Assembly: GCA_016125035.1 (NCBI GenBank)
Contig: WGMN01000002.1
Location: 17,790 to 81,789 of the forward strand
Direction: 5' to 3'
DNA from: Pseudomonadota bacterium
GTDB lineage: Bacteria; Pseudomonadota; Alphaproteobacteria; UBA2136; UBA6156
DNA length: 64,000 bases
Shown one piece after another: positions 31,176 through 61,480 of the stretch. Numbering within the stretch: position 1 is the stretch's first letter; every line of letters begins with the position of its first letter. Position numbers and translations under genes: made by a program. The notes beneath the pieces were generated by a model. It saw nothing but the letters and a program-made list of their open reading frames with translations. It had not been told where the DNA came from and searched no databases.

Positions 31176-31227
31176 AAAGCTACCGCAGCTTTTTCAATCC
31201 CCCTTCCCCCTGTGGCCCCCTTGCCGC

Positions 31228-32009: not shown

Positions 32010-32010
32010 C

Positions 32011-32175
32011 CTACCCTTTCAAAATACCCCAGATAAACCCAACCGCTCCCGCCAGGGCCGAGAGCCCCCACGCCGCGCCCACCACAAAGCCGCGGTAATG
32101 CCCCATATCCTCGCGCAATTGGGCAATGTCGCCGCGTATCGCGCGCAGCTCTTCCACAATTCCTTCCACATCCAT
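32011..32175 (-). CDS. 54-aa protein with C-terminal TM helix (possible holin/antiholin-like lysis accessory)
   Basis: Own translation gives MDVEGIVEELRAIRGDIAQLREDMGHYRGFVVGAAWGLSALAGAVGFIWGILKG. Its stop is 1 nt before the amidase ATG. It is below the track size cut-off. Confidence 0.4.
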   Translation of the reverse strand: MDVEGIVEELRAIRGDIAQLREDMGHYRGFVVGAAWGLSALAGAVGFIWGILKG

Positions 32176-32245
32176 GTCATTCACTTTCGCTTGTTATACG
32201 GGCAGTTGTCTTGCTTGACGGCTGGGCAACAGCTAAGTTGAACCC

Positions 32246-32791
32246 ATGAGCTCAAGCAAACCCGGCCAGCCTGAAGGCGTGGAAAAAACCATTACCGCCA
32301 CTGCGCCGCTTACGCCGCAGCGCTACAACATCCTGCTCACCCGGCACGGAGAGGAAATCGACTTCGACTTCCCCCCCGCCACTGCCGACCTCATCACCCG
32401 CTTCGGCTACCTCGTCCCGCACGATGTCCGCTGCAAACCCGGCCTGGTGCAGAATGAGGAAGATCTCTACGCCATGCTCGAGGCCGTGCTCGGCCGCGGT
32501 TACCGCGGCAACCTGGCCTACCACACGCGCAAGCAGGTCATCATTTCGCTGCACGATACCGCCATCCTCGGCTACCAGCGCCAATCCATCATCGATCCCC
32601 GCCTCTCCAACGAGGTCGCCTTTTTCTGGGAGATCTACCTCGACCAACGCATCTTCCCCCAATCGCAGGAGGAAGACTGGCAAAACCTTCTCGGCGAGCT
32701 CGTCACCAACGAGAAGACCGACCCGGAGGCCGATAAAAAACTCGCCGAAGACATCAAAAACCGCCTGCTCGACCAAGCCAAGGAAGACTAA
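32246..32791 (+). CDS. hypothetical protein (opposite-strand ORF inside phage-like cluster)
   Basis: The 181 aa ORF has strongly GC-biased third positions. Its stop overlaps the stop of the convergent 32788..33174 ORF (CTAA). Confidence 0.5.
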   Translation: MSSSKPGQPEGVEKTITATAPLTPQRYNILLTRHGEEIDFDFPPATADLITRFGYLVPHDVRCKPGLVQNEEDLYAMLEAVLGRGYRGNLAYHTRKQVIISLHDTAILGYQRQSIIDPRLSNEVAFFWEIYLDQRIFPQSQEEDWQNLLGELVTNEKTDPEADKKLAEDIKNRLLDQAKED

Positions 32792-33174
32792 TTTCCTCCC
32801 GGCGCGGCAGCCGGCGCAGCTCCGCTTCCCAGCAGAGACTCCAACTCCTTAATCAGGTCATCCATGCGCAGCACCTGCACATGGCCGTCACTTGCCTTTA
32901 GCGTCAAGGCTTGCCCGTCGCCGCTCAACTGCAGGTCCACCAGCTTGGGGTGCAGCTGCAAGGCATTCCAGGCCATCATCGCCTGGCGGTTTTTTCCGTC
33001 CAGCAGCAGGCCCACTATCGTTTGCAGGCTCTCGGCGTTGTTCTTTATTTTCTCCATGTTCCCCTGCTGCTCTTGCAGGTATGCCACCACACTTTCCTTC
33101 CATGGCCGATAAACTTCGTCGCGCCATTGCGCCACGGTCATCTTGGCCGCCGCCTGGTTTTTCACTTCATTCAT
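32788..33174 (-). CDS. hypothetical phage protein
   Basis: The 128 aa product is tightly packed with its neighbours. Confidence 0.45.
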   Translation of the reverse strand: MNEVKNQAAAKMTVAQWRDEVYRPWKESVVAYLQEQQGNMEKIKNNAESLQTIVGLLLDGKNRQAMMAWNALQLHPKLVDLQLSGDGQALTLKASDGHVQVLRMDDLIKELESLLGSGAAPAAAPGGN

Positions 33175-33186
33175 GGCTTTTCCTCC

Positions 33187-33957
33187 CTATCGTCCAAACA
33201 GGCTGCCAAGCAGCGTGCCCGCCACGCCGCCCACCGGGCCGCCCAGCGCTGTTCCCACGGTGCCGCCCAGGGTTCGTCCCAGGCCGCCGCCAAAGGCATT
33301 GCCAAAGGCGGTGCCCCCGCTGCCTTGCGCGTTGTAATAATCCAGCAGGCTCGCCTGCCGTTGCAGGTTCATCGCGCTCATCTGGCTTTGCTGCTGCGTC
33401 GCTGCCTGCTGGGTCTTGGCTGCGTTTACGCTGTTGGTGGAAGACGCCAGGTTGTACAAGTTCTGCTGCAAAGCCAACTTGTCGCTGCGCACCTGGTTGG
33501 CCAGCTCATCTTTTTGCAGCTGCAGGTTTTGTTCGGTTGTCTGCTGGTCCAGGCTGCGCTTCCGGCGCACCTCCAACGCGGCGGATGAATCGCTCAACCC
33601 GCGCTGCGCCAAACTCTGCTCCTCTTGCTGTGTCCGTGCGCGCGCCTGGTCTGCCAGCAGTTTCTCCTGCACCCCCTGCCATTGGTCCAGCACCTTCTGC
33701 GTGTCGGCATCGGGCGTATACCCGGTGGCAGAAAGCTCCTGGATCTGCGCCAAACTGTCCTGCATAATTTTATCCAGCTCGTCCTTTTGCGCCTGCTGGT
33801 CAGCGGTCAGGGGTATGCTCTTTGTCACATAGGTCACGCTGCCGTCGGCGTTTGTCACCGGCACCTGCTCCACCCCGTTCACCTCGTCGCGCAAGGTGCT
33901 TGGCGGCGGGGCGGGCGGGGCACTGGGCTGCTTCACACTGCCAAAAATACTTCCCAT
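33187..33957 (-). CDS. hypothetical phage structural/ejection-type protein (Q-rich coiled coil + Gly-rich C-terminus)
   Basis: The 256 aa product has a C-terminal GSGGTAFGNAFGGGLGRTLGGTVGTALGGPVGGVAG glycine-zipper-like tail. Confidence 0.45.
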   Translation of the reverse strand: MGSIFGSVKQPSAPPAPPPSTLRDEVNGVEQVPVTNADGSVTYVTKSIPLTADQQAQKDELDKIMQDSLAQIQELSATGYTPDADTQKVLDQWQGVQEKLLADQARARTQQEEQSLAQRGLSDSSAALEVRRKRSLDQQTTEQNLQLQKDELANQVRSDKLALQQNLYNLASSTNSVNAAKTQQAATQQQSQMSAMNLQRQASLLDYYNAQGSGGTAFGNAFGGGLGRTLGGTVGTALGGPVGGVAGTLLGSLFGR

Positions 33958-33961
33958 CGTT

Positions 33962-34423
33962 CTAGTCCTCCTGTTTGCTCTTCAAGCGCCGCGGCATGGT
34001 GCGCGGCGTCATTGCCAGTATCGGCTCCTTCACATCCAGCGCGGTGGCGGGCACAAAGCCTGCCTGCAACGCAGCGTGCAGGGCCTTCTTGTTCTTCGGC
34101 TGCACCCACACGCAGCGCAACTTCAACACCTCAAAAGCCAGCCTGAACAACTCTCTCAACACTCCCGGCGTGGCCCACATGCCCTGGCTGTTGGCACGGC
34201 AGATCACATCAAAGAACGCAATCCCCTCCTCCGCCTCGCCAAACACAAAGCCCGCGGCAAGCTCACTGCCGTGCAGCAATCCGTACAGGCTGGATTTTTC
34301 AAAATACGGCTTGGCCTTGTCATACCTGTCCGGCACGTCGGGGAAGTTCCTGGCCACCATCAGCCGATACAACTCAGGCCAATGCGCACGCCCCAGCGCC
34401 ATCACCTCACAATTTTTCATCAT
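33962..34423 (-). CDS. hypothetical phage protein
   Basis: The 153 aa product lies immediately after the tail-fibre gene. Confidence 0.4.
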   Translation of the reverse strand: MMKNCEVMALGRAHWPELYRLMVARNFPDVPDRYDKAKPYFEKSSLYGLLHGSELAAGFVFGEAEEGIAFFDVICRANSQGMWATPGVLRELFRLAFEVLKLRCVWVQPKNKKALHAALQAGFVPATALDVKEPILAMTPRTMPRRLKSKQED

Positions 34424-34428
34424 CCACC

Positions 34429-35727
34429 TCAGGTTTTAATCACGTAGTTCAACATCAGGGCGGGCGGCATGTTCTGGCTGTTGCCGCTGCCGCTGTTGGC
34501 AAGGCCTATCCCGGTGGTGGCCACCGCCGTGTTGGAAGGGTCGGCACTAGAGTTGGTGGTCTGCGAATTATCCCACGACTTATACCCCCCGGAAGACCCA
34601 TTCCACTTGTAAAGCTGCGCACCAAAACTCGCGGTAGAAGTACTGGTCTGCCCGTGCGCGTGCCCGGGGTCGGTTACCGTGTGGGTATGCTGGTGCATGC
34701 TTTGGCTGCCCCCGCTGGCACCCAGGCTGCTGCCGTTAATACCGCTCACCCCGCTGGTCACCCGGCTGGCTGCCGTGCCGCCCATGTTATCGGTGCCGAA
34801 TACACTGCGCCCGCGCAAGTCCGGCAACGTAAAGGTGGTGGAACCATCCCCCGCACCAAAGGCGGTCCCCACCACCGCAAACAAGCCCGCATAGGTGGTG
34901 CGGCTCACGTTCTGGCCGTAGCACATCAACCAGCCGCTGGGCGCGCTGGCGCCGGCAAAGGGCATCACCGCTCCGGCAGGCATGGTCAGCAGGCTCAGCA
35001 GGCCGCCGGTCAGCTGCGCGGTGTCCACACTGGCGGCGGCCAGGCCGCTCACCCCGGCGGTATTAATCCGCGCCACCTCGCTGCCGGCGCAAAGCACCAC
35101 CAGGTCGTTGCTGTCTGCCTGCAAGCTGTAATCCACACTTGCCCCGGCCACCACCACACCATCACTGCGGCGCGGCATGTTGCCCAACCTGCCACTGGTC
35201 ACCGGCCCGTAACCCACCTGGGTCGGCGCCGCCGCAATCACCGCGGCGGCCCCGCTTTCGTCCACCAGCCCGGTCAGGGTCACGGTGGTCAAACCACCGG
35301 CATAAGCGGCACTCACCACATCCCCCATCAGCGGCACACCGCTCACCGTCACCTGCACGCGGCGGTTGGCACGGTAAATGGCGGTAAAATCTCCACCACT
35401 CATGCTAAACGCACTGTCACTCACCCGCGCCAGGGTGCCCGCGCCTGCCTGCACAATCCACTCGTCCAGCGCCCCGGCGGTCGAGAACTTCAACGTCCCG
35501 TCACTGTTCAAAGCCACATTCAACCGCTCGGCAATGCTGCTGCGCGAGCCGCTGGCCTCATCGATCGCATTCAGCGCATCCACCACATAGTTCATGTCGC
35601 CATCCACCTTGGTCGAGGATATCGCCCGCTTCGGCACAGCGGTGGAATCGTCACGGTACTTGCTGCGGTTGGCCAAACCGCTTGCGCCGCTGTAATCGCC
35701 GCTCGGCCGTTGATATTTCGTCGTCAT
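34429..35727 (-). CDS. tail fibre protein with C-terminal phage tail-collar domain
   Basis: The C-terminus PFAGASAPSGWLMCYGQNVSRTTYAGLFAVVGTAFGAGDGSTTFTLPDLRGRSVFG matches the tail-collar (Collar) domain. Confidence 0.7.
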   Translation of the reverse strand: MTTKYQRPSGDYSGASGLANRSKYRDDSTAVPKRAISSTKVDGDMNYVVDALNAIDEASGSRSSIAERLNVALNSDGTLKFSTAGALDEWIVQAGAGTLARVSDSAFSMSGGDFTAIYRANRRVQVTVSGVPLMGDVVSAAYAGGLTTVTLTGLVDESGAAAVIAAAPTQVGYGPVTSGRLGNMPRRSDGVVVAGASVDYSLQADSNDLVVLCAGSEVARINTAGVSGLAAASVDTAQLTGGLLSLLTMPAGAVMPFAGASAPSGWLMCYGQNVSRTTYAGLFAVVGTAFGAGDGSTTFTLPDLRGRSVFGTDNMGGTAASRVTSGVSGINGSSLGASGGSQSMHQHTHTVTDPGHAHGQTSTSTASFGAQLYKWNGSSGGYKSWDNSQTTNSSADPSNTAVATTGIGLANSGSGNSQNMPPALMLNYVIKT

Positions 35728-37466
35728 TGCTCAGCCACTCCATATAGTTTCAATCCAAACAGCGTCAGCGGCCCGTCGGTGGAGCCACTCTCCACCGCAT
35801 AAGCCAAAGCCTCCGCCACCACGTGGTCCCGCGCCACCGGCAACACCGTTTCGCTGCTGTCCCACAACCCTTCTTCCCACTCGCTGGTGTCCCACAGGTC
35901 GGGCACACTGGGCGGCAGCAAACTCATCACCGCCGGGTTGGCTTCGTCGTAATCGCGGTAACGCCTCACCGTCAGCGTCGGCTTGCTGCCCGGCGCCACC
36001 AGCAACTCCACATACTTTCCGGCCCAACGCTTGCCTTTGCCTGGGCTCAGCCACGGCAACCACCAACGCGTCTGCACCGCTTCGCCGTCATCGCTCCACA
36101 CCGTTTCGTCATAGGCATAAAGCTGGCCTCCCTTGGCCAGATAAAGCACCCCGCTGGGCGCCGTATGCGCACCGCTCACCCCCGCAAAGGCTCCATCAAA
36201 CACCACCCAGCCCTTGCCAAAGGCGCCCACCTGCCACACCAGCGTGCGGTCACTCATCGCCACTCCCAGCCAACCTTGCACGTCGTGGTGCATGGGCACC
36301 ACCCGCCGGTAAAGTTCGTCATCCGCCATCACCGCCGCCACCAGCTCGGTCACTGTCGGGTCAAGCTCGGCCCCCACATCGCTCACATCAAGCTGCTCGG
36401 TCTGCACCGTGCGCGAGAGGGTCCGCGCCCCCCCGCGCGTAAAAAACAGCAGGTCGTTGGGCAGCTCCAGCACCGCATCGCGGTGCATCACCCCCAGCGG
36501 AATAGTCTTGCTCCACGCAAAATCCCCCTCCGCATCCGGCACGCTGCCGGTCCACAACTGCATCTGGTGGCGCCCCAAAAACACGGTAATATTATCCTTC
36601 ACCGCCATCGCCATCAACTCATCGGCCACACCGGCCTTATCGGCCAGGTTAATGCTTGGCACCACGCCGGTTTCGGTATCCGGCCACGCGGTGTGGTCGT
36701 TCACCCCAAACGTGTAATACACCCGCAACCTGTCCACATCACCACTCATCACACGGCTGGGCGCCCCGGTGCCAAAGCCCCACAAGCGGTCATGCGCCAC
36801 GGCCAGATAAGCCACCCTCGGCGGCTTCACCGTAAAAGCCACGGCACTCAACGTGCTGTCCAGCACCCCCGCGTCCAGCGTCACCGTCACCACACCAGCA
36901 CTGGTGCTCACAGCGCTCACCAGCGCCGTCACCTCACCGCTGTCCAGCGTCGCCCGCACGGTGCTCCCAACCGGGTAGAACACCTCATCGCTCTCAATGG
37001 AAAACTGCGCCGCCCCAACATAGGCCAACCCCGCCGCAACATCTGTCACCATGGTCGCAACCACGCTCCAACTTGCACCGTCATAGGCCAGCACATCATC
37101 CACGCCATTGCACAGCAGCAGCTTTCCGGCAAAGCTCACCGTGCGCACCGCCCCACTGGGGTCCAGGCCGCTGTAAATCTCCTCCCAGCCATCACCATCT
37201 TGCCGATAAATCTTCCCCGCATCGCTCACCACCAGCAGCTGGTATCCGCCACTGGCCATAAAGCCGGTCACCGCCACAATCGCTTCACCATCCAGGGCAT
37301 CGCCCACACGCACCACACCGTTGCGCTTGCTGCCGGCGCCATCGCTGCCCATCAACATGTTGCGCACTTCACGCGCAAAGGTGCTGGGCATGGTCAGCGC
37401 GCTGCGCGCTGTGCTCATCAACCCGTTGGGGAAGGGCGCCACCACCGTGCTCAAATCGCTCTTCAT
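35724..37466 (-). CDS. hypothetical phage tail protein (580 aa)
   Basis: An AAGGAG RBS lies 7 nt upstream of the ATG. Its position between the capsid and the fibre suggests a tail tubular/nozzle component. Confidence 0.5.
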   Translation of the reverse strand: MKSDLSTVVAPFPNGLMSTARSALTMPSTFAREVRNMLMGSDGAGSKRNGVVRVGDALDGEAIVAVTGFMASGGYQLLVVSDAGKIYRQDGDGWEEIYSGLDPSGAVRTVSFAGKLLLCNGVDDVLAYDGASWSVVATMVTDVAAGLAYVGAAQFSIESDEVFYPVGSTVRATLDSGEVTALVSAVSTSAGVVTVTLDAGVLDSTLSAVAFTVKPPRVAYLAVAHDRLWGFGTGAPSRVMSGDVDRLRVYYTFGVNDHTAWPDTETGVVPSINLADKAGVADELMAMAVKDNITVFLGRHQMQLWTGSVPDAEGDFAWSKTIPLGVMHRDAVLELPNDLLFFTRGGARTLSRTVQTEQLDVSDVGAELDPTVTELVAAVMADDELYRRVVPMHHDVQGWLGVAMSDRTLVWQVGAFGKGWVVFDGAFAGVSGAHTAPSGVLYLAKGGQLYAYDETVWSDDGEAVQTRWWLPWLSPGKGKRWAGKYVELLVAPGSKPTLTVRRYRDYDEANPAVMSLLPPSVPDLWDTSEWEEGLWDSSETVLPVARDHVVAEALAYAVESGSTDGPLTLFGLKLYGVAEQ

Positions 37467-37478
37467 TTTCCATCTCCT

Positions 37479-38114
37479 TCAAACCAAGGCATAGGGCTCA
37501 ACCCGCAACACCTCACCGGTGTTGGTCAATAGTGAAAGCTTCACCCGCTCTTTCGCCTCCGCCCAATTGCGCTGATAAAGCAGCAGCTCGCCCTGGGTGC
37601 CAAACCCGCGCTCAAACAGGCTGCTCCACACCATGCCACCCCACACCAGTGCGTGGTGGTGGGCTTTGGGCAGCAAAATGCTCGCCTCGCTGCCATCTTC
37701 CGCCAGGTCGCTCACCGCGGGCACATACAGCACGCTCAGGTTCGCCACCCCGGCCGGATGCACCGTCAGCACCGCCCCATCCACCGTGCACCGCTGCGGG
37801 CTGCCGCTGGCATTTCCCATCGGGTCCACATCCAAAATAACTGCCGGGCTCACCACTTCCAGGCTTGTGCCTGTGCCTTTGTCCACCACACGCAAAGTGC
37901 GGTAGGGCGTGCTCGCCAACGTCACCGTTCCGGCAATACTGGTGCTCACACTTTCCAGCCGCTGCAAACTGGGCGGAAGATAAGCCACCACTTCGTCCAT
38001 CAACTCGTGGTAGGCCGCATTCAGCCAGCCAATGGCCTTGCTTTCCACTTCGCCGTCCACGGCGGTGTCGTGGCTCAATTCCACAATCCGGTCGCGTATG
38101 CCGTTCACATCCAT
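37479..38114 (-). CDS. hypothetical phage tail/adaptor protein (~211 aa)
   Basis: The internal start MDVNGIRDRIVEL lies 9 nt after GGAGG. It is the first gene after the capsid terminator. Confidence 0.5.
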   Translation of the reverse strand: MDVNGIRDRIVELSHDTAVDGEVESKAIGWLNAAYHELMDEVVAYLPPSLQRLESVSTSIAGTVTLASTPYRTLRVVDKGTGTSLEVVSPAVILDVDPMGNASGSPQRCTVDGAVLTVHPAGVANLSVLYVPAVSDLAEDGSEASILLPKAHHHALVWGGMVWSSLFERGFGTQGELLLYQRNWAEAKERVKLSLLTNTGEVLRVEPYALV

Positions 38115-38129
38115 CCCGCCATCCTCCAA

Positions 38130-38167
38130 ATTTCCAAAACAAAAAGAAGGGGGCATAAGCCCCCTTC
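38130..38167 (-). terminator. intrinsic terminator downstream of major capsid gene
   Basis: The minus-strand hairpin GAAGGGGGC-TTAT-GCCCCCTTC is followed by TTTTTGTTTTGG. Confidence 0.65.
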
Positions 38168-38189
38168 CCTCACAGCCTTAGGCTTTCAC

Positions 38190-39227
38190 TTAGTCAGCCA
38201 CACCAGCCGTAAACAGGTGCACAACACCGTGGTCAACGCTGTTAAACACCAGCTTGTCCACACCGCGGATCTCATCAATGGCAAAGCCGTTCTGGTGGCC
38301 GTAGTCATCAATGTCTTCCTTGTAGTTGGTGCGCTTGCCGTAGGCCAGTGCGCAGGCTTGCGCGCCGCACAACACGTTGTGGGCCACGTCAATGCTGCCC
38401 GCCCCGGCGCCGCTCACCAACGGCATCTCGGTTTCAAAGATCATCACCCCGTCCCACATGCCTTTATAGCGCTGCCCATGCACCAGCACGCTGTCGCCAA
38501 AGGTGGTCGGAATGTACGTGTTCAGCGCTTTAAAGTCGGCATCCGCCAGCAGGTCGCGCACCGCGTATGAATGTGCAAACAGCACATATACCTCTTCCAC
38601 CTTGTTGCCATCCTTCAGCATAAAGGGGCGCACCTTGCGGTCGCCTTCCAGCAACGCTTTGCGCTTGGCCTTGCTAATTGCCGTGGTGGTCAGCTTATCG
38701 TTGGTGGCATCCACGTTGGCCAGCGCGGTGGCGTGCGTGGCGTTCCAGTTGCCGTCGGTGGCACCGTAAAGGTAACGGCTGCGATCACGGCCGCTGCTGG
38801 TATCGGTCAGCGCGGTCACAATGTCACTGCGCAGCTTGTCGGCCGCCCAGTCCACCAGGGCTTCACGGGCCTGGTTGCGCAGGTCAAAGGCCACACGCTT
38901 TTCACTCATCTCACCACGCAGGGCCACCGCATGGCGCAGGGTGTCCACCACCAGGCGCTGGTCGTAAAACACCAGGTCTTCCTCAGCCCCTTTCAACACG
39001 GTGTTGCCGCTCACGCCGGCACCACTCAGTTTGGCCCGCAGCTGCACGGTAATGGCATCACCGGGCGCCTTGGTCAGTTCCTCTTTCACCTGGATGATAT
39101 TACCGCTCCCGGTGCCCATAAAGGTGAAGAACGGGTTCTGGCCGAGATACTCGGCAAACACCTCATTGCTCCACTGCTCGGCACTCACGCCATGCGTGGT
39201 GTCGATCGTCGGTACAAACGTCGTCAT
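38190..39227 (-). CDS. putative major capsid protein
   Basis: The 345 aa ORF follows the scaffold and portal genes in T7-like order and is flanked by terminators. No secure motif was found; assignment is by position and size. Confidence 0.55.
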   Translation of the reverse strand: MTTFVPTIDTTHGVSAEQWSNEVFAEYLGQNPFFTFMGTGSGNIIQVKEELTKAPGDAITVQLRAKLSGAGVSGNTVLKGAEEDLVFYDQRLVVDTLRHAVALRGEMSEKRVAFDLRNQAREALVDWAADKLRSDIVTALTDTSSGRDRSRYLYGATDGNWNATHATALANVDATNDKLTTTAISKAKRKALLEGDRKVRPFMLKDGNKVEEVYVLFAHSYAVRDLLADADFKALNTYIPTTFGDSVLVHGQRYKGMWDGVMIFETEMPLVSGAGAGSIDVAHNVLCGAQACALAYGKRTNYKEDIDDYGHQNGFAIDEIRGVDKLVFNSVDHGVVHLFTAGVAD

Positions 39228-39248
39228 TCATGTTCTCTTTCGTTCATT

Positions 39249-39270
39249 AAAAAAACCGCCTCCCGGCGGC
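39249..39270 (-). terminator. intrinsic terminator between scaffold and capsid genes
   Basis: The minus-strand hairpin GGCGG-GGGA-CCGCC is followed by TTTTTTT. Confidence 0.6.
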
Positions 39271-39273
39271 ACA

Positions 39274-39320
39274 CCAGTCACTGTTCACTGGTCACTGTTC
39301 ACTATTAACTGTTCACTAAC
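39274..39320. repeat. heptamer tandem array (CACTGTT)x6 in capsid-gene leader
   Basis: The sequence reads cactgtt cactggt cactgtt cactatt aactgtt cactaac. Confidence 0.85.
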
Positions 39321-39951
39321 GGCCAAACACATCCTTCAAACCGGCCGCCTTCTTCGTGGGCGCCGCCACACTGCGCGCCCCTCCCTGGGTGGAAAATACC
39401 GGCGCCGCCGCCTGCTTTCTCACCGGCACGGCATTTTCGCCGCCCTTGGCTTCGGCTTCCATCTCGGCCTTAATAGCGGCCTTAATGTCCTCCGGCGTCG
39501 TCCCGTATTTCGCCGTAAAGTCGGCCACCGGCTTAAAGCCCATCGCCACCTTCAACGCCGCCACCACCGGCTGCGCAGCACCCGCAACCTCCGCATTCAA
39601 CGCGGGGTTGGCCTGCACCGCCTGGGCGTAAACACTGGGGCTACCGTCTGCCGTCTGCATGGCAATCAACCCGTTGTAGTCCACACCAAACAACGCCAGC
39701 GCATCGCGCACCAGCGCCTCGTCATGGAGAATACTCTCCGCTTTATTGGCCGGTATGCCCCCATCGTCGGTAATGGTTTCATTCGCCGTCGCGGGGCCGC
39801 CGCCAACCTGTGTCGCACCGGGCTTGCTGCGCCGGGCCAATTCCTTCAAATGCTGCCGTAACTTTTCAAGCTTCGAGCCCACCCCGTTGGGGTTGCCATC
39901 CTGCCCGTAACGGCTGCCAAAATTAAACTTCATCATCCCCATCCCCTTCAC
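39316..39951 (-). CDS. putative scaffolding/head-assembly protein
   Basis: The 211 aa Ala/Lys/Glu-rich product sits between the portal and capsid genes. The start is GTG at 39951 or ATG at 39936. Confidence 0.45.
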   Translation of the reverse strand: MKGMGMMKFNFGSRYGQDGNPNGVGSKLEKLRQHLKELARRSKPGATQVGGGPATANETITDDGGIPANKAESILHDEALVRDALALFGVDYNGLIAMQTADGSPSVYAQAVQANPALNAEVAGAAQPVVAALKVAMGFKPVADFTAKYGTTPEDIKAAIKAEMEAEAKGGENAVPVRKQAAAPVFSTQGGARSVAAPTKKAAGLKDVFGR

Positions 39952-39982
39952 TGTTCACTGTTGACTGTTCACTGTTTACTGG
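39947..39982. repeat. heptamer tandem array (CACTGTT)x5 overlapping portal 3' end / scaffold leader
   Basis: The sequence reads ttcactgttcactgttgactgttcactgtttactgg. Confidence 0.85.
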
Positions 39983-41687
39983 CCCTCAACGCGGCCAGAA
40001 TAACCTCCTTATTCCGCACGCCACTTGCCTCCACCAACACTTCCGGCGGCACCGGCACCCCGGCCTGCACCAGCAACTGCAACTGCTGGGCCTCCATCTC
40101 GCGGGCGCTGCTCACATCGCGCACTTCTTCCACCACCACGTCAAATTCGGCACTGGCCAGGTCCGGCACCCTCAACACTTCGCCGTCCTCGCCCTTCACC
40201 GCTTTGCCATGCTCGTCCAGCACCGGCGCGTTCAGCGCGATCTGCCGCCCGGCCCCAAACTGGTCGGTAATGTGGATCACCATCTCCTGGGTAAAGAACT
40301 GCCGCATCAACCCCAACACCTGCTCGCCCAGCTGCTTCTTCACCAACCGCAGGGTGTCGTAGGCAAACATCTGGTTCAGGCTGCCGGCCATCTGCCGCTG
40401 CTGAATGGCCACCCCGCTGGTGGCATTGCTCTGCTTGCCGATGCTCTCATCAAACACGCCGATCGCTTCCTGGATATCCTTGCCCGCCTGCTCCATCACA
40501 TTCACCTGGCTCACCGCCAGGTCGGTGTTGCGGATAATGCGCAAATCCTTGCCGCTCTTTTTCAAGATGATCCCATCCGGCCGCGCCGCTTCCCGCGCCA
40601 GCACATTGGGGTCATCCACCGCATCCACATCGGCAATCACCTGCGCGGTGCTCAGCAAATGCATCGCCTTGCTTCTGCGCTTGTTCAACTCGCGCTGGGG
40701 GTCCAGCGTTGCCCGCACCAGGCCGTAGGGCCGCCCGTCCTTGCGCTGGCGCTTATACACAAACGGCACCAACGTAAAGCGGTTGTGGCGATAACTCAGC
40801 GGCCGGTTGTCCAGCAGCACATCACCTGCAAAGTAGGCCACCATCACCCGCGGCACCTCATTCACTTCTTCCACCACCGCACCGGGCACCTTGGTCTCCT
40901 TGCGCTCAAAGGTGGTCACCAGGCGGCCGTCTGCCAGGCGCACGCGCCATTGCCTGGCCGGATCCTTGTACTGCACCTCCACCAGGCGGAAAAGTTGCCG
41001 CTGCTGGTCAAAATACCCCATCTCGCTACCGCGCCCGGCCCTGCCAATGCCGTAAAGCGCAGCGCCCAGCCCGCCATTGCCGCTCAGCTGCACCAACACC
41101 TGATCGGCCTGGTCGGGGAACAACCCACGCACCTCACCCTCATCCATCCAACGCTCGCGCGCCACAAAGCGCGCATCGGCAAAGTCCATGCGCCGTGCCA
41201 TCGGGTCCCACACCACGCTAAATTCATCCTCGGCGCGGGCAAAGATCTGCGCCCCCTCCCCGGCCTCCTGCACACCAATGTCCAGCCACCCAATACCGGC
41301 CACCAACCCGGCGCGGAACACATTGCTTATCTCCAGCGCCTGGTCACCACGCTCGGCCACATAAAGCGCCAGGTCGGTCAACACCCGCGCGGCATCCTCC
41401 TCCTGCGCATCGCCGCTGCGGCTCTTGTAAACCACCCGCGTGCGGCCCACCACTTCACCACCTGCCAGGTTATCCACCTTGGCGGCAATCTTGTTGATCA
41501 CAATCGCCGCCTGCCCATTTTCCGCCAACTTGCTCGCCTCCTCGGCGGTCCACTGGTTGCCGTCGTAAAAGTCCCAGGCGGTGCGTGCCTCCGCCCGCCA
41601 GGTGGCGTAGGCGGTAGATGTCACCGCCGCCTCAAACCACCCCTTCACTTTCCCCAGCACTGCCGCGTTATCATTCGCATCCATCAT
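39969..41687 (-). CDS. portal (head-to-tail connector) protein, podovirus type
   Basis: The 572 aa product has an N-terminal WDFYDGNQW motif typical of T7-like connector proteins. Confidence 0.7.
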   Translation of the reverse strand: MMDANDNAAVLGKVKGWFEAAVTSTAYATWRAEARTAWDFYDGNQWTAEEASKLAENGQAAIVINKIAAKVDNLAGGEVVGRTRVVYKSRSGDAQEEDAARVLTDLALYVAERGDQALEISNVFRAGLVAGIGWLDIGVQEAGEGAQIFARAEDEFSVVWDPMARRMDFADARFVARERWMDEGEVRGLFPDQADQVLVQLSGNGGLGAALYGIGRAGRGSEMGYFDQQRQLFRLVEVQYKDPARQWRVRLADGRLVTTFERKETKVPGAVVEEVNEVPRVMVAYFAGDVLLDNRPLSYRHNRFTLVPFVYKRQRKDGRPYGLVRATLDPQRELNKRRSKAMHLLSTAQVIADVDAVDDPNVLAREAARPDGIILKKSGKDLRIIRNTDLAVSQVNVMEQAGKDIQEAIGVFDESIGKQSNATSGVAIQQRQMAGSLNQMFAYDTLRLVKKQLGEQVLGLMRQFFTQEMVIHITDQFGAGRQIALNAPVLDEHGKAVKGEDGEVLRVPDLASAEFDVVVEEVRDVSSAREMEAQQLQLLVQAGVPVPPEVLVEASGVRNKEVILAALRASKQ

Positions 41688-41973
41688 TGTCGCTCTCCTG
41701 TTCCAACACCAAAGTCACCCAGCCGTCCAAGCGGCCAATCACCACGCGCAACGCGGTGGCGCCATGCACACCACCACCTTCGCCCCCCTCAAAATCCAGC
41801 CACTGTGCCCCGCCCCTGCGCAACTGCTCGGGCGGATCATGGCTCACCTGCACACGCACCTCATCGCCGGCATGCTTGTTCAAACTAAAGCGGGCCACCG
41901 CACACTCCGGGCACAAAAAAACCGGCCTCATCCGGCCGGCACTGGCATAGATATACTCCCCTCGCAGTCTCAT
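41671..41973 (-). CDS. hypothetical small phage protein (~100 aa)
   Basis: The ATG at 41973 lies 6 nt after GAGGAG. It overlaps the portal start. Confidence 0.4.
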   Translation of the reverse strand: MRLRGEYIYASAGRMRPVFLCPECAVARFSLNKHAGDEVRVQVSHDPPEQLRRGGAQWLDFEGGEGGGVHGATALRVVIGRLDGWVTLVLEQESDNDGCE

Positions 41974-41989
41974 CTCAGGTCTCCTCACT

Positions 41990-42019
41990 GGTTACAGATT
42001 ACGGGTCACGGGTTACGGT
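41990..42019. repeat. heptamer tandem array (GGTTACG-like)x4 between terL stop and next gene
   Basis: The sequence reads ggttaca gattacg ggtcacg ggttacg. Confidence 0.8.
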
Positions 42020-43384
42020 CTAAACCGTTCGCCAGTCACTCAACTTCGCCCTTGGCCTCTCAACCTTGCGCAACTCGCCCTCGGCCCTGGCCAACGCCAA
42101 CCCGCTCACCAACGCATACCTGGTGGCATCCATCAGGTGGTCATCGCGCTTGGCCACACGGCCCTTGGCATCGCGGGCATAAAGGCGGAACTCATGCCAC
42201 CACGGCAACAAATCCGCAAACACCTTCAAGCGCCCACTGCGCATGCGCTCCAGCACCTGCATCAGGCCACCCTCCACCGCGTTTTCCGCCAGCGAAAAAT
42301 TCACCCCCGCAGCAGCATAACCCTCCACCAAACTGGCCCCGTCGCGCGCCCCCACTGCCTGCCCGGCGGGGTCGCACACAGCGGGTATCCACGCCCCTCT
42401 GCGCAAAATCTCCGCCGCATGCTCGGCGGGGATCCTCTCACTCGCGCAATAAGCATCCACCACATAAACCACATCGCGCGCCACATCATGCGCCAACCAC
42501 ACCGCAGCGGTGGGGTTGGCCCAACCAAAGTCCACGCCCACGCACCAGCGCCAATCTTTGGGGATGTCAAACCGCGGCACCGCGATCTCACTTTCCTCAA
42601 CCGGATAAACCCGCCCCCTCCCCACACTGGGCTCACCAAACTCGCGCGCCCTCACCTCAAAGGGCCGCAGGCTTTTGCGCAACCGCGCCACGGCATCTTC
42701 TTCCAGGTGTGGGGCGTCACACCACCCGGCCTGCACCACCGCCTTGCCTTCCAGCCGAGAACTCTCGCTGAAATGCCGCACCATCTCGGTCAACCCGTTC
42801 AACGGCGTCATCGTCAACATCACATGCCCTCCCACGGTTAAGGTTCGCAACAAACACTCTTCATAAACACCAATCTCCGGTTCTTCATCCAGGTGGATAA
42901 CCTCGCGCGCCGTGCCCTGGAAGCTCTCCCTCCCCTGGTCAAAGCTCTTAAACGCCAGCACACTTTTGCCGCCGCTCACATGCCGCACCTGCACCACGTC
43001 CACCGCGCCGCTCAACCCGCTCTTCATCGTCACCCCCAGCACCAACCGCTGCGGGATCACCCCCTGCGACCCCAAATAAACCTCCTGCAAAATGTCGCGC
43101 GTCATCTCGCGTGTCACACTGGCGGCCCAGGCACGCACGGGGCTGCCAAAGCGCGCGCCGCGCCACCATGCGGGGTAACGCCCGCTCAGGTGGAAGGCCA
43201 GCTCACACGCCCCGGCCAAGGTCTTGCCCACACGGTTACCGGCCAAAAACAACCGCTCCTTCGCCGCTACTCCGGCGGCATGGAAGTCCCTCTGCCTGGC
43301 ATGCGGACGGTACCAAAAAAGCGGGTCCCCCCGCACCTCCTGCACCGCCCGCGCCAGCCACCGCCTGCGCTGCCTGTCATCCAT
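42020..43384 (-). CDS. terminase large subunit
   Basis: The 454 aa product has a Walker A (AGNRVGKT) and a C-terminal nuclease-type region. Confidence 0.75.
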   Translation of the reverse strand: MDDRQRRRWLARAVQEVRGDPLFWYRPHARQRDFHAAGVAAKERLFLAGNRVGKTLAGACELAFHLSGRYPAWWRGARFGSPVRAWAASVTREMTRDILQEVYLGSQGVIPQRLVLGVTMKSGLSGAVDVVQVRHVSGGKSVLAFKSFDQGRESFQGTAREVIHLDEEPEIGVYEECLLRTLTVGGHVMLTMTPLNGLTEMVRHFSESSRLEGKAVVQAGWCDAPHLEEDAVARLRKSLRPFEVRAREFGEPSVGRGRVYPVEESEIAVPRFDIPKDWRWCVGVDFGWANPTAAVWLAHDVARDVVYVVDAYCASERIPAEHAAEILRRGAWIPAVCDPAGQAVGARDGASLVEGYAAAGVNFSLAENAVEGGLMQVLERMRSGRLKVFADLLPWWHEFRLYARDAKGRVAKRDDHLMDATRYALVSGLALARAEGELRKVERPRAKLSDWRTV

Positions 43385-43399
43385 TCCGTTCTCCTTGTT

Positions 43400-43924
43400 T
43401 TACCAGTCTCCCTTGGCATAAGGCGAGGCAAACACCTCCCCTTTGCGCTTTTTCATCTCCTCATCATAACGCTGTTTAGCCTCAGCCTCCTGATCCGGTG
43501 TGGTGGGGTAAGGTATCGATTCTCCCATCAAAACACTGCCCCACGAGCGGTCGCGCAAAAACTTCTCACGCAGTTCTCCGGCTTCCTCGTCCGTCAGCTC
43601 GGGGTTGCGCTTGCGCTGGACAGCAACGTAAAGGTCGGCCTCCTGCCGAACCCGCAATCCAATATCATTGTTCACCACATCTGCCTGAGAGTCCGGCCTG
43701 TTGATCCCTTCCAATCTTTCTCTTGCATCCCCAAAAAGTCTAGCGGCACCTTTGCCTATGCTGTCAGCTAACTTTGCTGAAACATAGACATGTTGAAACG
43801 CATCCAGTTGCCGTGGATCGTCCATTCCATAATCCTCGCGCGCAATTTTCTGGGCTTGCTGACGCATGTTATCCAGGCTCACCGATACCTCAAAAGGCTG
43901 TCCTTTACCGGCTGGCATATTCAC
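43400..43924 (-). CDS. hypothetical phage protein (174 aa)
   Basis: An AAGGAG RBS is present. The gene lies upstream of terL. Confidence 0.45.
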   Translation of the reverse strand: MNMPAGKGQPFEVSVSLDNMRQQAQKIAREDYGMDDPRQLDAFQHVYVSAKLADSIGKGAARLFGDARERLEGINRPDSQADVVNNDIGLRVRQEADLYVAVQRKRNPELTDEEAGELREKFLRDRSWGSVLMGESIPYPTTPDQEAEAKQRYDEEMKKRKGEVFASPYAKGDW

Positions 43925-43940
43925 TATTCTCCTCTAGATG

Positions 43941-43966
43941 AACAAAAAACCGGGTTAAAACCCGGC
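43941..43966 (-). terminator. intrinsic terminator inside AT-rich islet
   Basis: The minus-strand hairpin CCGGG-TTTTAA-CCCGG is followed by TTTTTTGTT. Confidence 0.55.
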
Positions 43967-44073
43967 ATCCCGCATACGCAAGATAAAATCCCACGCCAAA
44001 ATAAAAAAGCTCAATGGCACCAGAACACTCCCCGCCAACACCGCCACAAGGAATTTCCACGTCATAACTTGTT

Positions 44074-44259
44074 TTAAAAAAGCCATGTGAGCTTTTCTAT
44101 CCCTACCCAATGCTGGATATACATCCACTGCAAATTAAGCGACTTCCACTCAAAGAACATGGCCTGCCATAAACACCCCAACCCCAGCGCCAGCGGCACA
44201 CCCACCGCCCACTGCACCCACTTCACCAGTTTCGCATTTACTTTCGCCATTTTTGTCAT
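44074..44259 (-). CDS. small hydrophobic protein in AT-rich islet (hypothetical)
   Basis: The 61 aa product has one TM helix. A further 36-codon hydrophobic ORF follows at 43955..44065. Confidence 0.3.
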   Translation of the reverse strand: MTKMAKVNAKLVKWVQWAVGVPLALGLGCLWQAMFFEWKSLNLQWMYIQHWVGIEKLTWLF

Positions 44260-44277
44260 TTTACCGCCTTTCCCTTT

Positions 44278-44664
44278 TCACTCCAATGGTATTTTCTCCC
44301 GCAACGCCTTCACCTCGGCTTCCAGCTCTTCAAGGCTCGGCACGGAGGCCTCTTCGGGCTTCACCGCCCCCAATCTCATATAAAGCAACCGCGCCGCCGC
44401 CACACTGCCCGCACGCGCCTTGGCCAGCATGGCACGGTCCACTGCCAGCAACTCGTCGGCCTCCACCGGGCGGCCTTTCAGGCGCGCCTCAATCTGGTCC
44501 TTCACTTCTTCGGTCAGGTAATCGCGCAGGGTCCTCACCCCCACCCGCGCCCGCGCCGCCAGCGCGCGGTGGCTCAACCCCGTGTTGGTCACATCCCCGG
44601 CCACGCTTAAGATCCTCTCCAGGGTCTTCGGGTTCATCTGATACCCGCTCTTGGTCAAGCCCAT
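44278..44664 (-). CDS. HTH DNA-binding protein (possible terminase small subunit)
   Basis: The internal start MGLTKSGYQMNP lies 5 nt after GGAGG. An HTH (LSHRALAARARVGVRTLRDYL) is present. It is the first gene after a terminator/promoter gap. Confidence 0.5.
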   Translation of the reverse strand: MGLTKSGYQMNPKTLERILSVAGDVTNTGLSHRALAARARVGVRTLRDYLTEEVKDQIEARLKGRPVEADELLAVDRAMLAKARAGSVAAARLLYMRLGAVKPEEASVPSLEELEAEVKALREKIPLE

Positions 44665-44835
44665 CTCCACCTCCCTTATAAGTAGCAAACCTCCCAACGG
44701 CAAAAGGCCGTGCTGTCGCCAGCACGGCCCTGCCTTTTATGCACCCCGTAAAAGCAAAGCGCCAAGGGGGTACCTCGGCGCGACTATATCAATTTCTAGC
44801 ATAAGTTGCTGCGCAAGTCAAGCACAAAATAACGT

Positions 44836-44886
44836 AGTGCCATCAAAAACAAGTCGGGGCCCGCGGTTTTAAGCTGCGGGCCCCTT
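44836..44886 (-). terminator. intrinsic terminator after 44889..45683 gene
   Basis: The minus-strand hairpin GGGGCCCGCAGC-TTAAAA-CCGCGGGCCCC is followed by GACTTGTTTTTGATGG. Confidence 0.6.
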
Positions 44887-44888
44887 CG

Positions 44889-45683
44889 TCATATTTCAAC
44901 CTTCGCCGGCTTCAACCGCCACATGTCGCAGTTCACCAAGGCTTCCACCTGGCCATCTTCACAAGCCAGGTCAACGCGGGCCCCTCCAGACTCAATTCCA
45001 AAAGGAGACCACCTGCGCAGCTTCAGCCACTCGGCGATCGCCAGCGCACGCGCAACCGCGTCGTTGGCAACGCCGTCCGCCTCCCACGCCGTACTCATCG
45101 CCAGCTGGCGCTGGCGATTATGCGAGAGCACAAGCAACGCCTTGTAGGGGAAGTCGCGCATAAGCTCGGCGTCCGCCTCGAAGACCCGCCGCGCATGGTC
45201 GCTCTCCACCCACACCACCAGCTCATCGTCGGCGGTCACATGGGTCTTGATGATGCCGAGGCTCGGCAACCCAGCCTTCAAGGCTGCCTTGCGGCGCTCG
45301 CTTTCGGGCAGGTCTTTCACCCCGCCCACCGGGCGTTTCAACACGCAGTCACGTCCACGCACGCAGGCTCCTGCCTGCACAGGGTAGTCCACGCCGTCAG
45401 GCACAAAGTCCACAAAGACACGGCCCCCTTTTTGTTCCGCCAGGCAAGCCGCCGCCGCCAGCGCCGCACAACCGTAAAAGCTGGCTTCCGCCCCTTTCCG
45501 GTCGTAAAAGCTCAGCGCGTAGCGCTTCCTCCCCACCGGGGAGAGGAACACGGTCTGCGGCGACTTAACCTTGATCTGCCGCAACACCTCCGCCCGCACG
45601 TCCGCGGGCAGCGCGGCGTCGGTCAGCACCACCGCCACTTCCACACCTGCAACCGTCAGTCTCGGTATCGTCAGAGCCGTCAT
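44889..45683 (-). CDS. hypothetical phage-cluster protein (265 aa)
   Basis: The start MTALTIPRL lies ~9 nt after AGGAGA. No family was recognised. Confidence 0.45.
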   Translation of the reverse strand: MTALTIPRLTVAGVEVAVVLTDAALPADVRAEVLRQIKVKSPQTVFLSPVGRKRYALSFYDRKGAEASFYGCAALAAAACLAEQKGGRVFVDFVPDGVDYPVQAGACVRGRDCVLKRPVGGVKDLPESERRKAALKAGLPSLGIIKTHVTADDELVVWVESDHARRVFEADAELMRDFPYKALLVLSHNRQRQLAMSTAWEADGVANDAVARALAIAEWLKLRRWSPFGIESGGARVDLACEDGQVEALVNCDMWRLKPAKVEI

Positions 45684-45796
45684 GGTTATGGTCTCCTGCC
45701 CGCATCCGCCGGGGCGTTGCGGGGCCAGGCCCAAACATCCAAGTTACGCTTTCTCGTGGGTTTTATGTATACCTTAAAGAACCCCCAAGCAACCCC

Positions 45797-46357
45797 TCAC
45801 CTGAACTCCCCACGCCGCACCTCACGTCCCCCCTCCTCTTCCCAGGGCATCACCGGCGCCACCACCACCAGCCCGCGCGCCACCAGCACCCGGCCCACCC
45901 CCTCCAGCGCCACCTGCAACCGCCGCCACGCGGTGCCACGGTCGCACCCCAGCAACCTGCCCAGCTGGGTGGTGGAGTACCTGTAACTTAAGCGAACATG
46001 CACCCCCTGCCGCCGCAATTTTTCCTTCATCGCCAAAGCCGCCCACAAGCGCTTTTCATCAGCCCAGTCGCCCCATGCCCACAGGCGCAGCAAGCGCGCG
46101 GCCTCGCTATCTGCCCGCGCCAGTTCATCCAGCGCGCCTTCCACCTTCAACGCCAGGTCAAGCCGCTCCACCGCGCCGTGCGGCAACTCCACCGCTTTTT
46201 CTCCTTCCCAGGCCCGCGCCACCGCGTCGGCTTCGTCACTCACTTCCTTCCATAAACTGCTCAATTTCGGCAGTCGCCGCCGCCGCAATACTTCGCAGCT
46301 CCACTGCAAGGCATGCTCGGCATCGGCAAAAACAGACGCTTGGGGGGTCGGTTGCAT
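45797..46357 (-). CDS. regulator with C-terminal sigma-70 region-4-like HTH
   Basis: The start MQPTPQAS follows GGAGGATAACCTG. The C-terminal segment RLSYRYSTTQLGRLLGCDRGTAWRRLQVALEGV is a region-4-like HTH. Confidence 0.45.
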   Translation of the reverse strand: MQPTPQASVFADAEHALQWSCEVLRRRRLPKLSSLWKEVSDEADAVARAWEGEKAVELPHGAVERLDLALKVEGALDELARADSEAARLLRLWAWGDWADEKRLWAALAMKEKLRRQGVHVRLSYRYSTTQLGRLLGCDRGTAWRRLQVALEGVGRVLVARGLVVVAPVMPWEEEGGREVRRGEFR

Positions 46358-46473
46358 CAGGTTATCCTCCAGATTGTTGCTTAAGGGGCACGCACCCCCT
46401 GCAACACAAAGTAGCAATTTATCCGGCACTCCCAACCATGAAGTGCCAACCCACCACGAGAGATCAATACCTT

Positions 46474-46500
46474 GGCAAAAAATAACCCCCATCACGGGGG
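46474..46500 (-). terminator. intrinsic terminator downstream of ybjQ
   Basis: The minus-strand hairpin CCCCC-GTGAT-GGGGG is followed by TTATTTTTTGCC. Confidence 0.65.
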
Positions 46501-46533
46501 TAAATATCGTACATATTACATTCCACCCCTCCG

Positions 46534-46863
46534 CTAGGCCGGCTCAATAAACACCGCCGTGCCCTGCACCGCCACCATCAGCATCGTTTTGCCGCTGCCG
46601 GAGATCTCGCCGTAGTCCAAATCAATGCCGATCACCGCATTGCAGCCGGCCTGCTCGGCCTGCTGGCTAATTTCCCGCAAAATCAACTCCCTGGCATCGC
46701 CCAGCGCATTCTGGAACGAGCCGGAACGCCCGCCCACCACATCGCGCACCTTGGCAAAAAAGTCGCGGAAGATGTTGGTCCCCATCACCGCCTCCGAGGC
46801 CACTAAGGGCCCGTATTTACGGATCCTATAGCCCTCAACATAGGGTGTGGTGGTCAGCAGCAA
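46534..46863 (-). CDS. YbjQ/UPF0145 family protein
   Basis: The 109 aa product is a typical DUF74 fold (…NAVIGIDLDYGEISGSG…). Confidence 0.75.
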   Translation of the reverse strand: MLLTTTPYVEGYRIRKYGPLVASEAVMGTNIFRDFFAKVRDVVGGRSGSFQNALGDARELILREISQQAEQAGCNAVIGIDLDYGEISGSGKTMLMVAVQGTAVFIEPA

Positions 46864-46867
46864 GCGG

Positions 46868-47080
46868 CTAAACCCGCTTGGCCTTCAAAGGCTTCTGCGC
46901 CGGCAGCTCGTCCACCAGGTCAAAGCCCATATCTGCTAAAAAATCATCGGCATAACCGCCAAAAAACGGCTCGGCCACCTCGTCCATCACCGGCTCCTGG
47001 ACCACCTCGATCACGGCACCATCGGCAGCGCCAATCAGCTGCATCGGCAGCTGCAGGTCTGCAAACACGTTGTTTTTCAT
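46868..47080 (-). CDS. small acidic hypothetical protein
   Basis: The 70 aa product is upstream of ybjQ. Confidence 0.3.
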   Translation of the reverse strand: MKNNVFADLQLPMQLIGAADGAVIEVVQEPVMDEVAEPFFGGYADDFLADMGFDLVDELPAQKPLKAKRV

Positions 47081-47181
47081 AGCTTCATCCTCGTTATGGT
47101 CTCCATGCTACCGGCCTACCGGCAACCGGTCAATCCACGCAAACATGGGTCTGTGGCCACCCCACCACAACCCCCTGGCCG

Positions 47182-59302: not shown

Positions 59303-59340
59303 CCACCCTACCACCTACCACCTACAACCTACAACCTCTC
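59303..59340. repeat. heptamer tandem array (ACCACCT/ACAACCT)x4-5 in leader of four-helix-bundle gene
   Basis: The sequence reads ccaccct accacct accacct acaacct acaacct. Confidence 0.8.
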
Positions 59341-61459: not shown

Positions 61460-61480
61460 CTGATTTCTGATTTCTGTTTT

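Follow-up and report, generated by a model that had tools for sequence, protein, structure and literature searches.

Tandem heptanucleotide arrays in and around a phage-like head-tail cluster of a proteobacterial chromosome: probable host microsatellites that adjoin stop codons

Many bacteria have an excess of heptameric simple sequence repeats (SSRs), for which a link to the footprint of DNA polymerase and to slippage has been suggested (PMC4692102, which cites Mrazek 2007). Such repeats have been known since 1990 as short tandemly repeated repetitive (STRR) sequences, and measurements of their excess go back to 2007; they form a recognized class whose origin and function are matters of proposal. 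Described cases include the TAACTGA repeats of marine Beggiatoaceae, 7-nt units present as 169 tandem sets of 2–6 that are mostly intergenic and in sense orientation (MacGregor 2015, PMC4679880), the GGGAATC and GGGGA(T/C)T SSRs of Xanthomonas and Nostoc (Rehm 2015, PMC4692102), and the GGGACCG x4 (49 copies) and MTYCTGA x5 elements of Geobacter metallireducens, for which a putative role in global regulation was annotated (PMC2700814). The arrays considered here lie in a 64,000-nt segment (hereafter the window, in whose numbering all coordinates are given) of the chromosome of a Pseudomonadota bacterium (assembly GCA_016125035.1, contig WGMN01000002.1, positions 17,790 to 81,789), and three of them, located between the head and packaging genes of a phage-like block, had been pointed out in an earlier note made from the sequence alone. 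The arrays of the window have the properties of heptanucleotide SSRs of the STRR type: at least four copies, an excess of period 7, mostly intergenic and scattered positions, and variability among relatives. They are probably lineage-specific microsatellites that arose by slippage and survive where they do no harm, being transcribed as unstructured, stop-rich spacers, and would as such be a trait of the host and not of the head module.

The period of seven stands out clearly from chance. When the window was scanned for arrays of at least four units with no more than three mismatches to their own consensus, seven were found at period 7, whilst 20 order-3 Markov simulations gave an expectation of 0.0; the same scan returned three arrays at period 6 and none at periods 8 and 9. 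An alternative scoring scheme recovered five arrays at period 7 against 0.04 expected, and 0–1 at each other period in 4–12. Unrelated bacterial loci totaling 1.35 Mb yielded only three period-7 arrays, a density ~50-fold lower than that of the window. The signal is confined to longer arrays, since exact two-copy heptamer doublets show no enrichment (11 observed against 7.3 expected). Artefacts of assembly can be discounted, because a second, independent assembly from this run (Logan) matches the arrays at 100% identity and each array is shorter than one read. At least six different units occur within the 64 kb, and five of the seven arrays are mostly intergenic, compared with an intergenic share of 10.9% for the window as a whole (P = 3e-4). 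Elsewhere, a metagenome-assembled genome of an unrelated member of the Betaproteobacteria (L024) carries period-7 arrays of CTCAAAA/CTCAACA at 10112–10148 and 12417–12444, within 2.3 kb of each other, an indication that other lineages, too, sporadically show the heptamer habit.

The three arrays of the head cluster were all located in the sequence, on the minus strand, in short junctions of co-transcribed head and packaging genes where no annotated feature explains them, as the earlier note had described. Array 1 (39274–39320) consists of ~6.5 AACAGTG-like heptamers, two of them exact, and reads on the mRNA strand, from 39320 to 39274, GTTAGTG AACAGTT AATAGTG AACAGTG ACCAGTG AACAGTG ACTGG. Tandem Repeats Finder (TRF) reports period 7 with 5.7 copies and 81% matches, and its best score (66) belongs to a higher-order repeat of 14 nt in 3.4 copies. 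The array begins at the stop codon (TAG, 39316–39318) of a putative scaffold gene (39316–39936, minus strand, 206 aa), at whose two ends arrays 1 and 2 are found, and it ends just short of a terminator-like hairpin, GCCGCCGGGAGGCGGT, followed by a run of seven T (39248–39270, minus strand; hairpin 39270–39255). The 88-nt spacer between the scaffold gene and the major capsid gene (38190–39227, minus strand; N4-gp56/Phage_capsid_3 family) reads, in mRNA order, stop, array 1, hairpin with T-run, weak ribosome-binding site (RBS) and ATG, and the capsid start is 46 nt from the array. Array 1 had been described as sitting between the terminator and the capsid RBS, and its position between the scaffold stop and the hairpin corrects this.

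Array 2 (39947–39982, minus strand) spans the 3′ end of the P22-like portal gene (39969–41687, minus strand) and comprises five AACAGTG-like units, three of them exact, with an mRNA strand from 39982 to 39947 of CCAGTAA ACAGTGA ACAGTCA ACAGTGA ACAGTGA A (TRF: 5.0 copies, 89% matches). The last four portal codons and the stop (TGA, 39969–39971) are encoded by its first ~1.7 units, which bears out the reported overlap with the portal gene, and the scaffold ATG (39936) follows 10 nt beyond the end of the array. Array 3 (41990–42019, minus strand) is made of four degenerate CCGTAAC-like units that come straight after the stop (TAG, 42020–42022) of the large terminase gene terL (42020–43384, minus strand). 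Its mRNA strand, from 42019 to 41990, is ACCGTAA CCCGTGA CCCGTAA TCTGTAA CC, in which 25 of 28 bases agree with the consensus; it was missed by TRF (score 30) and recovered by a consensus scan. Phased from the terL stop, the array presents TAG, TAA, TGA, TAA, TAA and TGA at a spacing of 7 nt. On its 3′ side are GAGGAG and the ATG (41973) of a 100-aa open reading frame (ORF; 41671–41973, minus strand). A second strong terminator-like hairpin, GCCGGCCGGATGAGGCCGGT, with a T7 run (41921–41940, minus strand) lies ~35 nt within this ORF, and may be either an attenuator or a sign that the start of the ORF is mis-set. Across the three arrays there are 4–6.5 units with two to three exact copies each and the remainder degenerate, and the earlier counts of six and five CACTGTT copies include degenerate units. 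The AACAGTG unit is thus found twice, on both sides of the scaffold gene. A core, GT(A/G)AC, had also been proposed as common to the units of the head cluster; this is missing from the other four arrays of the window, and we judge it a chance resemblance.

Those four further arrays, each with another unit, lie outside the phage-like block, two of them at junctions in host operons and two inside host genes, which argues against the arrays being a feature of the head module as first supposed. AGGTTGT/AGGTGGT x4.5 (59304–59338, minus strand) fills the spacer from the stop (59340–59342) of amiC, an AMIN-domain amidase gene, to the start of a gene of the 23S-rRNA-IVP family, and is built from two blocks of a mutated unit. 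GAAATCA x4 (61459–61488, minus strand) covers the last codons and the stop (TAG, 61481–61483) of an ABC permease gene and runs to the ATG (61459) of a second one. The other two are in frame within coding regions. AGGAACG x4–5 (154–194, minus strand) encodes RRNEERGTRNEEE in the variable acidic loop ahead of the KH domain of era, and the era orthologue of contig L088 has EEDVDEENGEAITV at the position of this loop. CCCACAA x4 (7289–7324, plus strand; GGGTTGT on the opposite strand) encodes part of the linker between two Pfam domains of uvrA, the UvrA interaction and DNA-binding domains, and its non-coding strand, (GGGTTGT)4, is a canonical G-quadruplex motif. Random scatter of arrays, coding regions included, had been named in the earlier note as evidence against its regulatory proposal, and the era and uvrA copies supply the coding part of this. 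There are three arrays in the 16 kb of the phage-like block and four in the 48 kb outside it, a difference in density that is not convincing.

The genes are all co-directional at these junctions, and each spacer therefore serves as the 3′ trailer of one gene and the 5′ leader of another; because of this double role, the long spacers are the informative cases. The arrays had been placed by reference to the downstream start codon or RBS, but where spacer length permits judgement they adjoin the upstream stop. Array 2, array 3 and the permease array each take in this stop or follow it directly, and in the window and its relatives together arrays begin 0–2 nt after a conserved upstream stop or contain it. 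The adjacency is real and not created by the array, since the scaffold C-terminus, (D/R)(V/I)FG(K/R) followed by the stop, is conserved. For the four long-spacer cases the joint probability is ~4e-7 under a null of uniform placement, which is a crude and post hoc null applied to a small sample. Units that bear a stop codon in sense orientation make up six of the eight intergenic arrays against a base rate of 0.25–0.27 (P ~0.004, or 0.013 when the two AACAGTG arrays are counted once), again post hoc and in a small sample. The distance to the downstream start, by comparison, ranges from immediate at the permease junction, through near at the portal–scaffold junction, to 46–160 nt in the long spacers. 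All five intergenic arrays of the window are in sense orientation inside operons, with 0–46 nt to the next start or hairpin, and a clear Shine-Dalgarno (SD) sequence is not present before two of the downstream genes, the permease and the capsid gene.

The comparison with orthologous clusters was based on eleven further cluster-bearing contigs and several short ones, scans of metagenomes and of IMG/VR with the capsid and portal having returned few loci, most of them short. Gene order is fully conserved across these clusters, yet no arrays are found at the head junctions of 11 of the ~15 related contigs. The syntenic cluster is array-free in L088, L096, L100–L102, L105, L083 and L090–L095. Arrays are present in only three other lineages, with units always unrelated to those of the window: TAGCTTT x4 placed 2 nt past the scaffold stop in L084; GGAACCA x4 in the last portal codons and ACAAGAG x3 again 2 nt past the scaffold stop in L085/L086; and AGTAATC-like x5 at the adaptor stop in L103. 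At the portal–scaffold junction the genes overlap by 4 nt in L084 and are separated by 3 nt in L088 and by 127–764 nt elsewhere, and the scaffold–capsid junction is 23–186 nt, where a hairpin and T-run are frequent, as in the window. Hairpins equivalent to the terminator-like one of the window also occur in array-free clusters. L085 and L086, two independent assemblies that are 99.97% identical (3 SNPs, or single-nucleotide polymorphisms, per 11 kb), form the sole near-identical pair and have identical arrays; the check for length polymorphism proposed earlier thus showed none, in what is a weak comparison.

Amongst the described systems, the TAACTGA repeats of the Beggiatoaceae are the closest in anatomy. 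They too are in sense orientation in operons, overlap the ends of upstream ORFs and have stop-bearing units, with a few copies inside ORFs where no stop arises and no predicted RNA structure. In contrast, they have one dominant unit whose commonest end is 1 nt before the start codon, whereas the window has at least six units, stop-adjacent arrays and GC-rich DNA. No window array consists of TAACTGA or a one-base variant of it, the nearest being two mismatches away from the reverse complement. The STRR sequences of heterocystous cyanobacteria, in so far as Mazel 1990 is reported in PMC4692102, likewise involve several different tandem heptamers in the non-coding DNA of one genome. They belong to another phylum and to AT-richer genomes, and their arrays can be much longer. 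One STRR unit, CAACAGT, is one position apart from GAACAGT, a rotation of the AACAGTG of the window, and array 2 has one exact AACAGTC copy, so that there may be a resemblance of units. The repeats of Xanthomonas and Nostoc share with the window a period-7 intergenic excess, ~4 units, length and sequence that vary at the same junctions of close relatives, and a proposed origin by slippage; their units, however, are G-tracts that fold into G-quadruplexes, a potential that only the uvrA array has in the window. The Geobacter metallireducens elements are likewise four to five tandem heptamers between and within genes, but each family has one conserved unit in many copies, unlike the diverse units of the window.

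Taken with these precedents, the arrays would be best explained by tandem duplication or replication slippage in steps of 7 bp, and sometimes 14 bp, as both the seed and the means of expansion. Stepwise growth of this kind is suggested by the 14-nt higher-order repeat of array 1 and by the block structure of the amiC array. We infer that selection then spares arrays only where a 7-bp step is harmless. One such place would be at or just past a stop codon, above all with a stop-bearing unit, which leaves the upstream protein unchanged at any copy number. Another would be an unconstrained spacer, and a third the surface loops of proteins, provided that the unit is stop-free and the total length preserves the reading frame. 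The arrays of the head cluster would be part of the polycistronic mRNA as unstructured, stop-rich spacers that terminate translation in all frames and set the upstream stop farther from the next hairpin or RBS. Their effect on translational coupling is probably mild at most, and no dedicated regulator would be needed. The suggestion in the earlier note that these are slip-prone tracts modulating expression is thus plausible as far as origin goes; as a switch it does not fit, as a position between stop and RBS offers no on/off.

Several observations bear on whether the arrays might instead be sites for a protein. Structure predictions for the RNA of the five junctions do not rise above those for shuffled sequences (z from −0.6 to +1.4), no Rfam families or tRNAs were found in scans of the window, and no sigma-70-like promoter was found in 38900–42300. 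Arrays 1–3 contain no G-tracts, and a series of four or more G3+ tracts spaced by 7 nt is seen in the uvrA array only. Searches of the small cluster ORFs with Pfam, PHROG and NCBIfam gave no ribbon-helix-helix (RHH), helix-turn-helix (HTH), ParB-type or RNA-binding family above threshold, and the two ORFs that had been put forward as HTH proteins (45797–46357 and 44278–44664) matched no family above threshold either, the best hit being an AsnC-type HTH at a sub-threshold E of 0.019. The earlier proposal of binding arrays for a regulator of late gene expression is not borne out, with units that differ and no DNA- or RNA-binding protein that could be tied to them; the absence of a common unit in itself makes a single sequence-specific regulator unlikely. 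A model for such binding does exist in the omega repressor of pSM19035, an RHH protein that acts on arrays of 7-bp WATCACW heptads in promoter regions, and the arrays might by analogy be DNA operators or centromere-like sites bound cooperatively by an RHH or ParB-type protein of the cluster. The omega operators share tandem 7-bp units with the window, and the unit sequences are weakly similar, in that the plus-strand unit GTTCACT agrees with WATCACW at five of seven positions, which is a lead only; the presence of AACAGTG on both sides of the scaffold gene would also suit this view. The omega operators, however, are sited at promoters and have a known RHH protein, whereas the window arrays are internal to operons, with no promoter-like site near them and no RHH or ParB-like gene detected in the cluster. 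Furthermore, orthologous clusters are array-free or have other units and the host arrays differ too, and we consider heptad operators most unlikely. Binding at the level of RNA, with the arrays as platforms for an S1-, Csp- or CsrA-like protein or a heptad reader that sets downstream translation or coupling, as MacGregor proposed for the TAACTGA repeats, has more in its favor: the five intergenic arrays are sense-oriented in operons and within 46 nt of a start or hairpin, their RNA is predicted to be single-stranded, the permease and capsid genes are without a clear SD, arrays recur at the same junctions of related clusters despite the turnover of units, and the anatomy agrees with that of the Beggiatoaceae repeats (PMC4679880). 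It nevertheless remains unlikely, as one sequence-specific binder cannot serve wholly different units, the arrays adjoin the upstream stop and not the position 1 nt before the start that is commonest in the Beggiatoaceae genome BOGUAY, copies lie in frame within era and uvrA, most orthologous clusters do without arrays, and no candidate protein turned up.

Two further explanations ascribe a role to the stops or to the instability of the arrays themselves. In a GC-rich genome poor in off-frame stops, stop-bearing heptamers could act as all-frame insulators that catch read-through or frameshifted ribosomes before the next hairpin, RBS or cistron. The enrichment of stop-bearing units noted above (P ~0.004–0.03) agrees with this, as does the 7-nt period, which distributes consecutive stops over the three frames (as in the series of array 3), and the start of arrays at a conserved stop codon in three lineages. 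The enrichment test is, however, post hoc and the sample small, the intergenic GAAATCA and ACAAGAG arrays provide no extra stops, and the non-repeat spacers of relatives also hold several stops. One or two extra stops would suffice, which makes four to six copies superfluous, and survivorship yields the same pattern, as expansion at a 3′ end leaves the protein unaltered only if the unit bears a stop; insulation is in our opinion a quite improbable purpose of the arrays. Phase variation, in which a change of copy number would reversibly switch or tune the head genes, is very unlikely. Tandem repeats are inherently prone to slippage, and heptanucleotide promoter repeats of Haemophilus are known to drive such variation (PMC12721329); in addition, a Logan contig of the same sample terminates exactly within the era array. 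The arrays of the window, though, lie between stop and RBS or hairpin, and not between −35 and −10 elements or in a switchable frame, and no promoter-like sites were found. Degenerate units suppress slippage, switching in the essential era gene would be lethal, and the arrays of two assemblies separated by 3 SNPs per 11 kb are identical.

Similar arrays also occur in viral sequences. (AACAGTG)n with n of at least three occurs in 19 IMG/VR contigs (GC 0.41–0.62, arrays up to 94 bp) and is therefore not unique to the window; two composition-matched control units were found in 0 and 99 contigs, the 99 coming mostly from one sample, and TAACTGA in 107, making this comparison too noisy to show whether the unit is favored. 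The ending of ORFs within (AACAGTG)n in other viral contigs was set aside as evidence, being forced by a unit that carries stops in all frames. In one IMG/VR locus (L118, ~5640–5680, minus strand of the locus) (AACAGTG)3 is followed at once by a second heptamer array with an AAATCTT-like unit. A pac or cos site was also considered and rejected, the arrays being downstream of terL, portal and scaffold and missing from most orthologous clusters.

Whilst host microsatellites formed by slippage remain the probable explanation, there are points that weigh against it. The account leaves the period of seven unexplained, and the sample is small, these 64 kb being the only part of the source genome covered. 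A purely neutral model does not clearly predict that arrays in spacers of 165–186 nt should hug the stop, nor does independent slippage predict AACAGTG on both sides of the scaffold gene. Amongst the four closest relatives, a scaffold–capsid array is present in three (the window, L084 and L085, but not L100) and an array at the portal 3′ end in two, and such recurring junctions could represent a maintained feature with fast turnover of units and not independent neutral events. The stop-hugging, the twin AACAGTG flanks and the recurrent gains at the scaffold–capsid junction keep a functional reading alive. In its broadest form, this reading would make the arrays a device under selection, arising at stops and widespread across phyla, transcribed, single-stranded and read in a 7-nt register, either as all-frame ribosome stops or by a heptad-reading factor that sets coupling or stoichiometry. 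The pattern NNNCAGT fits several units in either orientation, namely GAACAGT of the window, AATCAGT of L103, the cyanobacterial units CAACAGT and CCCCAGT, and TATCAGT, the complement of TAACTGA. We regard this device as unlikely; if it were real, the recurrence of arrays at the scaffold–capsid junction and the portal end of a domesticated capsid cluster, despite the turnover of units, would reflect function and not tolerance.

The window is a segment of bacterial chromosome whose GC content is ~0.60 and whose GC skew is very strong and even, each 2-kb bin lying between −0.10 and −0.28, and the minus strand holds all identified genes over the 64 kb with the exception of uvrA. The best match of its PBP1A (56478–58922) among 185,579 species representatives is at 39–40% identity, scattered over Nitrospinota, Burkholderiales and Bdellovibrionota, and the source lineage seems to be poorly represented. 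The only sample found, run SRR10063242, served as a comparison metagenome in a study of hot springs (PMC8468003, Table C17). The phage-like block occupies 16 kb (~31.2–47.1 kb; 31200–47100) and includes a TerS-like orf128, terL, the 100-aa ORF, the P22-like portal, the scaffold, the N4-gp56 capsid, an SU10-type adaptor, a 580-aa protein, a tail collar and an Amidase_2 gene. At 32246–32791 there are conserved antiparallel overlapping ORFs of 181 aa (plus strand) and 174 aa (minus strand), and gene calls in all relatives put this region on the strand opposite to the remainder of the cluster.

Homologues of the capsid number in the hundreds, at 65–87% identity and on chromosomal contigs of up to 1.36 Mb. 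The cluster is fully syntenic among the window, L084, L085, L088, L096, L100–L103 and L105, and no fewer than eight independent contigs, with GC contents of 0.37–0.64 and some of them labeled Alphaproteobacteria, carry it at one and the same site of the chromosome (GGDEF/PDT/YbjQ ... DUF2497-valS). Identity among the cluster contigs is 76–87% for the capsid and 77–81% for the adjacent ValRS, no sequenced phage has a capsid that exceeds 36% identity to it, and no integrase was seen. Because of the fixed site, the similar identities of capsid and ValRS, the distance from known phages and the lack of an integrase, this looks like a slowly evolving, vertically inherited, domesticated podovirus-type head-tail cluster, similar to a gene transfer agent and common to many Alphaproteobacteria-like genomes. 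No description of such a podovirus-type cluster was found in the literature searched.

These findings speak against annotating the arrays as sites that regulate the late genes of a phage. To what is known of heptameric repeats, the locus adds a GC-rich (0.60) lineage of Proteobacteria, from a hot spring, in which one genome combines many different units, heptamer copies that lie in frame within era and uvrA, and a single syntenic capsid cluster that occurs with and without arrays, the arrays starting at conserved stop codons. This series of clusters with and without arrays may offer a natural experiment on the origin of heptanucleotide repeats and on the coupling of cistrons.

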